Below are positions 27,619 through 31,858 of a stretch of DNA of 64,000 nt, piece after piece (positions within the stretch are counted from its first letter, which is position 1; each line of letters begins with the position of its first letter). The DNA comes from Escherichia phage 310Ecol104PP. Location of the stretch: the sequence record OR062946.1. The stretch is one strand, 5' to 3'. The notes under the pieces were generated by a model. It was not told the DNA's origin. It did no database searches and saw only the letters and a list, made by a program, of their open reading frames with translations. A program made the position numbers and the translations under genes.

Positions 27619-27897
27619 TCAAAATGTAATTTCTAACCAATCACCATCACGCTGATCACTATTGACTTTAAAGCTAAATCCTTCTTTTCTCAGCCAATCA
27701 CCAATTTCTTCAGTAATCAATTTATCGCGAGCAGTACAATAATAACTAAAATATGTTTTACCTTGTTCAGCTGCTTTATTAGCAAGTTCCGAAAAATCTT
27801 TAATAAAACACTCTAGCTTGAACTGTTTGCTTTTAAGTGCTTTTTCGCGTAATTGATTAGCAAAAGATTCATTTTCATAAAGATCATACTGTTCCAT
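27619..27897 (-). CDS. hypothetical protein (T4 24.2-like position)
   Basis: 92 aa ORF between rnlB and hoc, same strand, tightly packed. Confidence 0.65.
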   Translation of the reverse strand: MEQYDLYENESFANQLREKALKSKQFKLECFIKDFSELANKAAEQGKTYFSYYCTARDKLITEEIGDWLRKEGFSFKVNSDQRDGDWLEITF

Positions 27898-28099
27898 TTT
27901 TCACCTTTTTATTAATATGTCTTTTTCTATAGACAACTTTTTCTCGAGTCTCAAATTTATTCTTAGCAGTCATAGCTCGAGCCCATAATACAGCCACTTC
28001 CTTTGCCTGTAAGTTCAATTCACGAGCAATTTCAATGAATGACTTTCCAGACTCATGGAGTGTAAACACCACAACCTCAGTTCTCATAATCAATCTCAT
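27884..28099 (-). CDS. hypothetical small protein with helix-turn-helix-like segment (T4 24.3-like position)
   Basis: 71 aa; segment GKSFIEIARELNLQAKEVAVLWARA resembles an HTH; basic C-terminus. Confidence 0.6.
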   Translation of the reverse strand: MRLIMRTEVVVFTLHESGKSFIEIARELNLQAKEVAVLWARAMTAKNKFETREKVVYRKRHINKKVKNGTV

Positions 28100-28187: not shown

Positions 28188-29606
28188 TTATGGATAGGTA
28201 TAGATGATACCAGTTTCTAAAGCAGTTTTATGAATGATGTATCCATTACGCGATTCTTGAACATCAACTTCTGGATAGTCTTTCATCATCTTCTGAAGAG
28301 TGTAACGATGCAGGTAGTATTTACTATCTGGATCTTCAGTTTTCCAATCTTTACCTTCTTCAGTCATTTTTTGGATTTCATCCATAACCCACCAACCGCA
28401 CCAGATGTAAGCTGAGCTACGGTGTGGAAGAGGATGAACATAAGGTAATTCACCTTCTGGTTCTGGAGCAACTTTATCAGTTACCTGAACTTGACCTGTT
28501 GTTTTAACTGTTTTGCTATCATAATCAGTTGCTGTAACGACAGCAGTAACTTCAATAGTTTGACTTCCAACAGATGAAGTATCAACGGTGTATACATTAG
28601 TTGACCCTTCTACAGGAGAAGAATCTTTCTTCCATGAATATTCAATTTGCGCTTCTTCTGGAGCACCAGTAACATTAGCAGTAAATGTAGCCGAAGCATC
28701 TTGTTGAACGTTAATAGAAGGAGGAGTCAATGTAACCTGTGGATTCATTGTCTTCTTATTAACCGTTAATGATACTTCATTCGAAGTAACTTCCTTTTCA
28801 TTGTAATTTTCTGCAGTTACTTGGGCTACGCATTTAATTCTTTTTACTCCACTTGTAGTTGGAGTATAGCTAAATGTAGAGTTAGTTTCTCCACTAATTT
28901 GAGAATCATCTACATACCATTTATATGTAGCAGACGCTCCATCAGGTTGAGAAACTAAAGCAGCAGTAAATTGAACCGGGGTTCCAATTACTCCTGCTGG
29001 AGGACTATCAGGAGTTACTGCCAAAGTAGTTGTCTGCTCCTTTTTATTAACAGTCAGTGATACTTCATTAGAAGTAACGCTTAGTGCATCATAATCTGTC
29101 GCGGTTACTTGAGCTACACACTTAATTTTTTTAACTCCGCTTGTGGCAGGAGTGTAATTGAATGTAGCGCTAGTTGCTTCGTCCACAGGAGAACCGTCAA
29201 CGTACCATTGATACGTAGCAGATGCACCTGATGGCTGTGAAGCTAAAGCGGCAGTAAATTCAATAGCTGTTCCGATTACTCCAGCATCAGGGCTACCAGG
29301 AGTTACGGCTAAAGTAGTTGTTTGTGTCTTATTTTGAATTGTGATAGTTGTACTAATTTCAGCTGTTTCGGGACTACTATCGGCAACTTGATTTGTTGCA
29401 ACTACTTTAATAGTCTTTTGACCGGCAGGTCCTTTTAGTACATAACTAAAAGTTGCTGACGTTTCTTCCTGTTGAACATTATCTACAGTCCAAGCATATG
29501 TAATAGGTCCATCTCCAGTTTGACCACTGGGTGTAGCAGTAAACTGCTGAGTCTGATCTATAACTCCAGTAGGTGTTTTAGGAGTTATATCAACTGTAAA
29601 AGTCAT
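28188..29606 (-). CDS. hoc: Hoc outer capsid decoration protein, 472 aa, with an extra Ig-like domain
   Basis: N-terminus MTFTVDITPKTPTGVID and C-terminal capsid-binding region; two adjacent ~96-aa repeats in the middle; hairpin terminator just downstream. Confidence 0.9.
   Translation of the reverse strand: MTFTVDITPKTPTGVIDQTQQFTATPSGQTGDGPITYAWTVDNVQQEETSATFSYVLKGPAGQKTIKVVATNQVADSSPETAEISTTITIQNKTQTTTLAVTPGSPDAGVIGTAIEFTAALASQPSGASATYQWYVDGSPVDEATSATFNYTPATSGVKKIKCVAQVTATDYDALSVTSNEVSLTVNKKEQTTTLAVTPDSPPAGVIGTPVQFTAALVSQPDGASATYKWYVDDSQISGETNSTFSYTPTTSGVKRIKCVAQVTAENYNEKEVTSNEVSLTVNKKTMNPQVTLTPPSINVQQDASATFTANVTGAPEEAQIEYSWKKDSSPVEGSTNVYTVDTSSVGSQTIEVTAVVTATDYDSKTVKTTGQVQVTDKVAPEPEGELPYVHPLPHRSSAYIWCGWWVMDEIQKMTEEGKDWKTEDPDSKYYLHRYTLQKMMKDYPEVDVQESRNGYIIHKTALETGIIYTYP
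28755..29330 (-). repeat. tandem duplication (2 x ~288 bp) inside hoc encoding two adjacent Ig-like domains
   Basis: Residues ~93-188 and ~189-284 align end to end (KTQTTTLAVTPGSPDAGVIGT... vs KEQTTTLAVTPDSPPAGVIGT...). Confidence 0.8.
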
Positions 29607-29615
29607 AAGTTATCC

Positions 29616-30296
29616 TTATTTTAATGTTACGAAAGAAGAATTGCGTGTTTCACGAATTAAAACTGATCCGTCACGGTTAATGTAATAAATTAAGCTAAAT
29701 AAAGTTTGGTGTGCTGACGCATGCTCAAAACTTGTTGGGTGAGATTTCCAATCCGGAGTTTCAGCAATCCATTGATAAATCCACCAAGGAACAGTGCAGA
29801 ATCCTGGATTTTTTCCAATCAGCTGAAGATTCGGACTAAAGTTTTCCGGAAGAGTAAATACAGACGGCTTTTCAGATTCAATAATCTCAGCTACAGCCTG
29901 TTCAAACTTTTCTTCAACAAAGGGAGTATCTTCAATCAAAACATCGGTATTTTCAGGAATTTTATCCGTTTCTACTACTTCAATTTTAATGTCAGATTTA
30001 ACCGGAGAATCAATCAGAAGTGCTGCTTCTGGATTGACTTCTTCATCGTCATATTTTAACCCCTCTGCAGCATCAGCAGCATCAATTAAGTCTTTAATAG
30101 ATAACCCATCAGTCTCCGGCATAGGTTCACTAGCGAGCTTCTGGAGGGCTTCTTCAATATCAACAACGATATTATCAAAAGATTTATTCTTTTTGACCTT
30201 TATACCAAACTGTTCAGCGTATTCAGCTAATTTAGCTTTAGCTTCTTTATTATCATCAAGAGCCTTCAGCTCTGCAATATAATCTTTATCTATCAT
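29616..30296 (-). CDS. inh: Inh, inhibitor of prohead protease gp21
   Basis: 226 aa, T4 Inh length; 9 nt upstream of hoc. Confidence 0.85.
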   Translation of the reverse strand: MIDKDYIAELKALDDNKEAKAKLAEYAEQFGIKVKKNKSFDNIVVDIEEALQKLASEPMPETDGLSIKDLIDAADAAEGLKYDDEEVNPEAALLIDSPVKSDIKIEVVETDKIPENTDVLIEDTPFVEEKFEQAVAEIIESEKPSVFTLPENFSPNLQLIGKNPGFCTVPWWIYQWIAETPDWKSHPTSFEHASAHQTLFSLIYYINRDGSVLIRETRNSSFVTLK

Positions 30297-30309
30297 AATA
30301 TTTCCTCAG

Positions 30310-30317
30310 TATAAATA
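30310..30317 (+). promoter_or_regulatory. late promoter for uvsW
   Basis: Exact TATAAATA about 30 nt upstream of the ATG. Confidence 0.7.
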
Positions 30318-30346
30318 TAGATATATTTATTACATGGTATTTAGAC

Positions 30347-31858
30347 ATGACTGACATTAAAGTACATTTTTATGATTTTAGTCACGTGAGAATTGATTGT
30401 GAAGAAAGTACATTTCATGAACTCCGTGATTTCTTTAGCTTTGAAGCTGATGGGTATCGTTTTAATCCGAAATACAAATATGGTCACTGGGATGGACGAA
30501 TCCGTCTTTTAGATTATAATCGTCTTCTTCCATTTGGCTTAGTCGGGCAAATTAAAAAGTTCTGTGATAACTTTGGCTATAAAGCCTGGATTGACCCGCA
30601 AATTAACGAAAAAGAAGAATTATCAAGAAAAGATTTTGATGAATGGCTTTCTAAATTAGAAATCTATTCAGGAAATAAAAGAATTGAACCGCATTGGTAT
30701 CAAAAAGATGCAGTGTTCGAAGGATTAGTTAATCGTCGTAGAATTCTTAATCTTCCAACATCCGCTGGTAAATCTTTAATTCAAGCTTTGCTTGCGCGAT
30801 ATTATTTGGAAAATTATGAAGGTAAAATTCTTATCATTGTTCCAACAACTGCTCTGACAACTCAGATGGCTGATGACTTTGTTGACTATCGTTTATTCAG
30901 TCATGCAATGATAAAGAAAATTGGTGGCGGAGCATCAAAAGATGATAAATATAAAAATGATGCACCAGTCGTTGTTGGTACATGGCAAACTGTAGTTAAA
31001 CAACCGAAAGAATGGTTCTCACAGTTTGGAATGATGATGAATGATGAATGCCATCTTGCTACAGGAAAAAGTATTTCATCTATCATATCAGGTTTAAATA
31101 ACTGCATGTTCAAATTCGGTTTGTCTGGTTCATTACGTGATGGCAAAGCCAATATCATGCAGTATGTTGGAATGTTTGGTGAAATATTTAAGCCAGTAAC
31201 GACTTCTAAATTAATGGAAGATGGACAAGTAACTGAGCTAAAAATTAATAGTATTTTTCTTCGCTATCCCGATGAGTTCACTACTAAATTAAAGGGAAAA
31301 ACTTACCAAGAAGAAATAAAAATTATTACTGGGCTCAGTAAAAGAAATAAATGGATCGCTAAATTAGCTATTAAGCTTGCGCAAAAAGATGAAAACGCTT
31401 TTGTCATGTTTAAACATGTATCGCATGGTAAAGCTATTTTCGATTTAATTAAAAATGAGTACGATAAAGTTTATTACGTATCAGGGGAAGTTGATACCGA
31501 AACCCGCAATATAATGAAAACCTTAGCTGAAAATGGTAAAGGAATAATTATAGTAGCTAGTTATGGTGTATTTTCTACTGGTATTTCAGTTAAAAATCTG
31601 CATCACGTTGTTTTAGCGCACGGTGTTAAATCAAAAATCATTGTATTACAAACAATCGGTCGTGTATTACGTAAGCATGGTTCTAAAACAATCGCAACAG
31701 TCTGGGACCTCATAGATGATTGTGGCGTTAAGCCAAAATCTGCTAATACGAAAAAGAAATATGTTCATTTGAACTATCTTTTAAAACACGGCATTGATCG
31801 TATTCAGCGCTACGCAGATGAAAAATTTAATTACGTAATGAAAACAGTTAATTTATAA
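30347..31858 (+). CDS. uvsW: UvsW DNA/RNA helicase
   Basis: 503 aa; helicase motifs PTSAGKS and DECH; TATAAATA about 30 nt upstream. Confidence 0.95.
   Translation: MTDIKVHFYDFSHVRIDCEESTFHELRDFFSFEADGYRFNPKYKYGHWDGRIRLLDYNRLLPFGLVGQIKKFCDNFGYKAWIDPQINEKEELSRKDFDEWLSKLEIYSGNKRIEPHWYQKDAVFEGLVNRRRILNLPTSAGKSLIQALLARYYLENYEGKILIIVPTTALTTQMADDFVDYRLFSHAMIKKIGGGASKDDKYKNDAPVVVGTWQTVVKQPKEWFSQFGMMMNDECHLATGKSISSIISGLNNCMFKFGLSGSLRDGKANIMQYVGMFGEIFKPVTTSKLMEDGQVTELKINSIFLRYPDEFTTKLKGKTYQEEIKIITGLSKRNKWIAKLAIKLAQKDENAFVMFKHVSHGKAIFDLIKNEYDKVYYVSGEVDTETRNIMKTLAENGKGIIIVASYGVFSTGISVKNLHHVVLAHGVKSKIIVLQTIGRVLRKHGSKTIATVWDLIDDCGVKPKSANTKKKYVHLNYLLKHGIDRIQRYADEKFNYVMKTVNL

Follow-up and report, generated by a model that had tools for sequence, protein, structure and literature searches.

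In bacteriophage T4, the highly immunogenic outer capsid protein Hoc (376 amino acids; PDB 5VF3 chain Z, 8T1X, and 8T9R) binds through its C-terminal domain to the center of the gp23* hexamers, with 155 copies per capsid, and forms a linear fiber of approximately 180 Å that consists of 3 Ig-like domains (PMC10385173). The number of Ig-like domains in Hoc homologues ranges from 1 to 10, the largest number being present in the 1174-amino acid Hoc protein of Serratia phage Muldoon (PMC10385173), and loss of domain 3 has been reported for the Hoc protein of PhiPNJ-9 (PMC11853027). A variable number of Ig-like domains in Hoc is thus already published. The protein is not essential in the laboratory (PMC9958956), and several studies have related it to mucin binding. 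In PhiPNJ-6, mucin binding involves residues E29 and G33 of domain 1 (D1) (PMC11150434), while the Hoc protein of PhiPNJ-9 binds MUC2/fucose via residues S183, L184, and T185 of domain 2 (D2) (PMC11853027). A D246N change in domain 3 (D3) of evolved T4 has also been linked to mucin binding, according to a paper that cites this work. In a full-text literature search we did not find an explicit description of a 472-amino acid Hoc with a duplicated D2, or of a one-, two-, and three-unit D2 polymorphism and mosaicism in Tequatrovirus, and the domain structure of hoc is not discussed in PMC10580926. The 472-amino acid form is nevertheless deposited in hundreds of GenBank records, where it is named Hoc, "PKD domain protein", or "capsid and scaffold protein". 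The population-level pattern of D2 copy number presented below may be undescribed, but it is an unsurprising extension of the known variability of Hoc and of the high rate of recombination among T4-type phages.

Here we analyze the hoc gene present in a stretch of 64,000 nucleotides from Escherichia phage 310Ecol104PP (OR062946.1), referred to as the window. The Hoc protein that it encodes is produced from the same locus as T4 Hoc and is collinear with it in D1, D3, and the capsid-binding domain, but contains 2 D2 units where T4 Hoc contains a single one. Taking all the evidence together, we consider it very probable that this is an intact Tequatrovirus hoc gene carrying a common two-unit allele, that the D2 pair is old, and that D2 behaves in this genus as a recombining cassette of variable copy number.

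The hoc gene and its genomic context

According to the list of open reading frames of the window, a single reading frame of 472 amino acids covers positions 28188–29606 on the minus strand. The protein matched T4 Hoc (PDB 5vf3_Z, 376 amino acids) in a phmmer search of PDB sequences with an E value of 1e-215, in 2 stretches, and the exact 472-amino acid sequence is deposited at NCBI as the Hoc protein of Escherichia phage 310Ecol104PP (WLY86368.1). Upstream of hoc lies inh (29616–30296, minus strand), which encodes the prohead protease inhibitor and is found in this order in T4 and other Tequatroviruses, and beyond inh lies uvsW (30347–31858). The downstream neighbor is a small 24.3-like reading frame (27884–28099, minus strand) with annotated equivalents in phages 235Ecol030PP and W143. 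The gene is thus located between inh and 24.3/24.2/rnlB of a T4-type genome, and the gene order rnlB, 24.2, 24.3, hoc, inh, uvsW is the one found in T4, 235Ecol030PP, Solly, and W143. The 20 kb around hoc are 96–97% identical to many Tequatrovirus genomes. This gene is therefore an ordinary, intact hoc of a Tequatrovirus. As a separate observation, the gap between inh and uvsW (30297–30346) does not contain the homing-endonuclease gene segE that is present at this place in the T4 record MT984581; segE is likewise missing from the inh-uvsW gap in 235Ecol030PP, Solly, and W143.

Domain organization of the Hoc protein

The 2 stretches of the phmmer alignment pair residues 1–113 of T4 Hoc with residues 1–113 of the window protein, and residues 95–376 of T4 Hoc with residues 191–472. 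This means that the window protein is T4 Hoc plus exactly one extra 96-amino acid D2 unit. D1 (amino acids 1–94, positions 29325–29606, minus strand) corresponds to residues 1–94 of T4 Hoc. It is followed by D2 unit 1 (amino acids 95–190, 29037–29324, minus strand), the additional one when compared with T4, which we named type 1, and by D2 unit 2 (amino acids 191–286, 28749–29036, minus strand), which we named type 2 and to which T4 domain 2 corresponds most closely. D3 (amino acids 287–376, 28479–28748, minus strand) corresponds to residues 191–280 of T4 Hoc, and the capsid-binding domain at the C terminus (amino acids 377–472, 28191–28478, minus strand) to residues 281–376.

An AlphaFold2 (AF2) model built from a 34-sequence alignment predicted 4 beta-sandwich domains with boundaries near residues 94, 190, and 286 and block pLDDT values mostly of 88–96 over residues 1–378 (approximately 90 for D1 and D3 and above 90 for D2 unit 1). 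The inter-domain geometry of the model is uncertain (pTM 0.55) and its C-terminal domain is poor, with pLDDT values below 50 at residues 380–405 and 445–472, which makes it unsuited to measuring the length of the fiber. The top Foldseek matches in the PDB were strings of 4 Ig domains, namely Sidekick-2 Ig1–4, Dscam1 Ig1–4, and ICAM-5 D1–D4. Pfam searches placed a PKD domain at amino acids 195–267, within D2 unit 2 (35.1 bits, cut-off 23.5), and 2 matches scoring just under their cut-offs, Ig_3 and I-set, at amino acids 289–356, within D3. The protein therefore starts with the string of Ig-like (PKD/I-set type) beta-sandwiches that is characteristic of Hoc. The identity between domains of the same protein was 42–44% for D1 and the D2 units, 34–42% for the D2 units and D3, and 25% for D1 and D3. 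Judged from these identities and the 74% between the 2 D2 units, the whole Ig string arose by older serial duplications, of which the D2 pair is the youngest layer.

At the other end of the protein, residues 377–472 differ from residues 281–376 of T4 Hoc at one position, a D to E change in KTDDPD. All residues that Fokine et al. 2023 (PMC10385173) list as gp23* contacts are kept, namely Y293, H295, R300, W309, W310, D313, and E355-S-R-N-G359 in T4 numbering. The protein thus has both the conserved capsid-binding domain and the Ig-like string of a Hoc protein. The Hoc proteins of RB49 (PDB 3SHS) and Serratia phage Muldoon follow the same design of a conserved capsid-binding domain and a variable Ig string, but their sequences are far more distant and their arrays are not made of the Tequatrovirus D2 unit. 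RB49 Hoc was not recovered at E ≤ 0.01 in the PDB sequence search, which returned T4 Hoc and titin only.

The initial annotation of this DNA had described 2 adjacent repeats of approximately 96 amino acids at 28755–29330, and had proposed, taking T4 Hoc as a 376-amino acid protein with 3 Ig-like domains and a capsid-binding domain, that an in-frame tandem pair of 288 bp gives the 472-amino acid protein 4 Ig-like modules. The repeat is real and these coordinates lie within 6 nt of our domain-based bounds. The T4 entries (PDB 5vf3_Z and MT984581) agree with this length and organization, so T4 Hoc does not have the length or the 4 Ig repeats of the window protein. The alignment, the AF2 model, and the Foldseek matches all bear out that the duplicated domain is D2 and that the protein has 4 Ig-like modules.

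Divergence and conservation of the two domain 2 units

Tandem Repeats Finder detected 2.0 copies of a 288-nt period at positions 28752–29321 (75% matches, score 644), and a second repeat search delimited the copies at 28752–29039 and 29040–29327 with 73% identity. Compared domain by domain, the 2 units share 70 of 96 residues (approximately 73–74%; BLASTP E = 3e-49, and against 10,000 shuffles the best reached 20 identities in 96) and are 73.3% identical at the nucleotide level. They differ at 77 of 288 nucleotides, with 17, 17, and 43 differences at codon positions 1, 2, and 3, respectively, and the longest in-register run of identical sequence is 12 nt. Using the Nei-Gojobori method we obtained a dS of 1.13 between the units, which is near saturation, a dN of 0.186, and a dN/dS of approximately 0.16. 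This low ratio over a long divergence indicates that each unit has been retained as a folded, coding domain; both D2 units are under purifying selection.

We then compared the window gene with those of 5 other Tequatroviruses. The dS values were 0.03–0.35 for D1, 0.0–0.36 for D2 units in the same position, 0.13–0.29 for D3 plus the C-terminal domain, and 0.05–0.17 for the neighboring inh gene. Unit 1 showed 90–98% nucleotide identity to the first units of 3 multi-unit phages and 80% to the single unit of T4, while unit 2 showed 87–100% identity to the second units of the same 3 phages and 88% to T4 domain 2. The same positional relationship was observed in a larger set of 167 units taken from 120 protein-cluster representatives. 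In two-unit proteins, the nearest neighbor of the first unit was the first unit of another phage in 30 of 31 cases, and the second unit was nearest to a second unit in 28 of 31, the other 3 resembling the third unit of three-unit proteins. Adjacent units within one protein were at most 85% identical in amino acids in all 47 pairs. The copies are thus neither near-identical, nor low in dS, nor closer to each other than to their orthologues, as copies from a recent tandem duplication would be. The high dS between units together with their positional clustering indicates that the event took place before the sampled Tequatroviruses diverged.

Number of domain 2 units in related phages

To count D2 units we used a one-unit tblastn query (E ≤ 1e-25), in which the total number of matching places equals the unit count, together with the spans of matches in evenly spaced records. 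The coverage of a two-unit DNA query was unusable for counting because overlapping pieces are joined and single-unit records also reach 100%. The tblastn search found 613 phage records with a D2 unit and 886 units in total, 273 more than one per record. Of 60 evenly spaced records, 35 had one unit, 23 had 2, and 2 had 3; the equivalent sample of 60 from the DNA search gave 34, 21, and 3. Extrapolation from both samples and the total unit count yields approximately 360 one-unit genomes (approximately 59% of the 613 records, as in T4), 220 two-unit genomes (approximately 37%), and 25 three-unit genomes (approximately 4%, with a 568-amino acid Hoc). Within the best 120 protein clusters, 81 were of 376 amino acids, 30 of 472 or 468, 8 of 568 or 570, and one of 567 (P0044). 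The two-unit Hoc is therefore a common allele and nothing special to this genome. W143, with one unit, and Solly, with 2, both match the window at 96–97% identity across 20 kb, which shows that copy number varies independently of the genome backbone.

The 472-amino acid Hoc proteins of 235Ecol030PP, PP01, ime09, Yersinia phage PST, and vB_EcoM_G4500 have an architecture identical to that of the window Hoc, from which the 472-amino acid Tequatrovirus proteins show only allelic differences, located mainly in D1 and the D2 loops. In the 568-amino acid proteins (clusters P0001–P0008), found in vB-Eco-KMB26 (1222–2928, a coding sequence of 1707 nt), UGKSEcP1, and Shigella phage ESh36, the first 2 units are positional orthologues of those of the window (92% and 87% nucleotide identity, respectively), and a third unit, which we named type 3, brings the number of Ig-like domains to 5, compared with 4 in the window Hoc. 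The 567-amino acid protein P0044, which is metagenome-derived and represents a cluster of 24 members, has a D1 and a C-terminal domain of the Tequatrovirus type, and its array consists of one type-1 unit and, after it, 2 D2-like units that have diverged much further (55% and 40% identity). From its sequence, this array is a separate or older expansion.

Judged by record name, the 613 matches belong almost wholly to Escherichia, Shigella, Enterobacteria, Yersinia, Tequatrovirus, Salmonella, and Citrobacter phages. Import of the extra unit from outside the genus is not favored, since nearly all records matched by the D2 unit at E ≤ 1e-25 bear the names of T4-type enterobacterial phages. Some records deserve a comment. 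In MZ501066.1 (FriedrichMiescher), MK327940.1 (G29), LC465543.1 (SfPhi01), and OR887633.1 (vb_GEC_SH_GT), hoc is annotated as 2 coding sequences ("Hoc part 1 / part 2" or "x2"), and the matches in these split-hoc records show 1-nt length differences that represent natural frameshifts or sequencing errors. The 32-kb record MG010123.1, named "Staphylococcus phage SAJK-IND", bears a Tequatrovirus hoc (93.7% identity) and looks mislabelled, as do the Hoc clusters P0024 and P0060, which are named "endonuclease [Shigella sonnei]" and "endonuclease [Bacillus cereus]".

Variability and mosaicism of domain 2

D2 varies more than any other part of Hoc, with a mean column entropy of 0.42, compared with 0.31 in D1, 0.16 in D3, and 0.04 in the C-terminal domain. 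The variability clusters in 4 or 5 short segments, mostly predicted loops, and among 130 distinct units the entropy was 0.60 in predicted loops and 0.25 in strands (p = 0.01, one-sided Mann-Whitney test). The diagnostic segments of D2 occur in many combinations. The nearest unit of the 81 single-unit representatives was of type 2 in 46, type 1 in 33, and type 3 in 2, and in 21 of the 81 the N-terminal third is of type 1 and the middle third of type 2, as expected after loss of one unit of a type-1/type-2 array by unequal crossover. The T4 unit (MT984581, hoc at 1737–2867) is type-2-like except for a 36-nt patch at unit codons 73–84, encoding TDYDALSV, which reproduces window unit 1 exactly but agrees with window unit 2 at only 22 of 36 positions. 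This patch suggests either a past gene conversion or that the T4 allele derives from a multi-unit array, and many single-unit alleles, that of T4 included, look like products of deletion or recombination from a type-1/type-2 array. A further case is 235Ecol030PP (hoc at 1501–2919), in which unit 2 is identical to that of the window at 288 of 288 nucleotides and D1 has a dS of 0.03, while greater divergence than in other phages was seen in inh (dS 0.166) and in the part of hoc covering D3 and the C-terminal domain (dS 0.158). An identical unit 2 next to a divergent D3, C-terminal domain, and inh indicates a recombination breakpoint inside hoc. Altogether, the nearly constant order of the units (type 1, type 2, type 3) speaks for an array that arose once and then went through repeated rounds of contraction and gene conversion. 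The polarity of this scenario, an ancestral array with repeated losses as opposed to an ancestral single unit, would follow from nearest-neighbor painting of approximately 120 cluster representatives rather than from a formal, recombination-aware phylogeny.

Origin and possible role of the domain 2 array

Tandem repeats can be mis-assembled and no reads were at hand for the window, yet a spurious expansion of the repeat, which the initial annotation had named as a possible trap, is so implausible that its chance is practically negligible. With 77 differences and no shared run longer than 12 nt, reads place uniquely in the 2 copies; the reading frame is unbroken and both units fold confidently in the AF2 prediction. 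The 90% protein cluster that contains the identical NCBI-deposited protein holds further 472-amino acid members from independent assemblies, 235Ecol030PP carries a two-unit hoc at about 97% (97.2%) nucleotide identity, and hundreds of independent genomes have the same architecture. The age that had been given to the event did not hold. A recent in-frame 288-bp duplication in this phage or its immediate lineage would fit the fact that the units adjoin in frame, measure exactly 288 nt each, and face a single unit in T4, but it is very improbable given that the copies are only 73% identical with a dS of 1.13 (against 0.0–0.36 between orthologous units), that each is 87–100% identical to the unit in the same position of other phages, and that roughly a third of the 613 records share this architecture. 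The array might instead have formed at co-infection by unequal, out-of-register recombination between hoc alleles that had already diverged, in which case the units already differed when they were first joined. Recombination is frequent among T4-type phages, the mosaic tracts and the breakpoint inside the gene show it for hoc alleles, and both type-1-like and type-2-like single-unit alleles circulate. We regard this origin as rather unlikely, however, because repeated formation should also produce arrays in the 2-1 order, whereas type 1 nearly always comes before type 2 (30/31 and 28/31), pointing to one origin. An ancient duplication in place and unequal recombination make the same prediction for the present data, and either way the event is old and shared.

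Whether the extra unit matters to the phage is a separate question. It may be neutral, with the copy number of a dispensable protein drifting without effect on fitness or adherence, and there is some chance that this is so. The dispensability of Hoc in the laboratory (PMC9958956), the coexistence of one-, two-, and three-unit forms among otherwise 96–97% identical genomes, and the split hoc genes of several records agree with neutrality. The key mucin-binding residues map to D1, D2, and D3 in 3 different studies, so that the dosage of D2 may not matter. On the other side, the dN/dS of approximately 0.16 in both units shows that each was kept as a folded domain over a long divergence, and the concentration of variability in predicted loops is what is expected of a surface under selection. 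A tentative proposal, which we hold as possible rather than probable, is that the D2 cassette, with its 1, 2, or 3 copies, mosaic structure, and variable loops, tunes the length of the fiber and its glycan-binding valency or specificity to mucosal or environmental niches, and that the three-Ig Hoc of T4 is a derived, shortened recombinant and not the ancestral form.

Under the reading that we prefer, a D2 pair derived from an old tandem duplication or old unequal recombination was in place before the sampled Tequatroviruses diverged. The unit acts as a cassette present in 1, 2, or 3 copies across the genus (proteins of 376, 472, and 568 amino acids), with homologous recombination, both among units and among alleles, generating mosaics and altering the copy number. 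By analogy with T4, one Hoc molecule would sit at each gp23* hexamer center (155 per capsid) and would be dispensable for growth. Its conserved C-terminal domain would provide the anchor and its Ig-like string would project outward, in the order D1, D2 (type 1), D2 (type 2), D3 instead of the D1, D2, D3 of T4. Such a fiber would be longer by approximately one Ig domain, about a quarter, or 4–5 nm on the approximately 18 nm of T4, and would expose 2 D2 surfaces. That a longer fiber alters adherence, as had been suggested at the outset, is plausible by extension from the work on T4, RB49, PhiPNJ-6, and PhiPNJ-9.

For the window itself these findings have little consequence, as it carries a normal Hoc allele that was already in GenBank. 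For the genus, they mean that the 376-amino acid Hoc of T4 is unrepresentative, since approximately 40% of sequenced relatives encode a Hoc that is one or two Ig domains longer. This bears on the extrapolation of results on mucus adherence, immunogenicity, and display platforms from T4 Hoc to therapeutic T4-like phages, and the one-, two-, and three-unit series offers a natural experiment on the effect of fiber length or domain dosage in mucus binding. The Hoc protein of PhiPNJ-9 is, like that of the window, a natural Tequatrovirus-type Hoc with an altered number of Ig domains, but it has lost a domain (domain 3) where the window Hoc has an additional one. Its binding stretch NEVSLT is present in both D2 units of the window Hoc, at residues 180–185 and 276–281, so that each fiber would carry 2 such stretches. 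The window Hoc also has G33, has Q29 as in T4 and not E as in PhiPNJ-6, and keeps the D equivalent to T4 D246; by sequence comparison these are candidate residues for adherence to mucin glycans.
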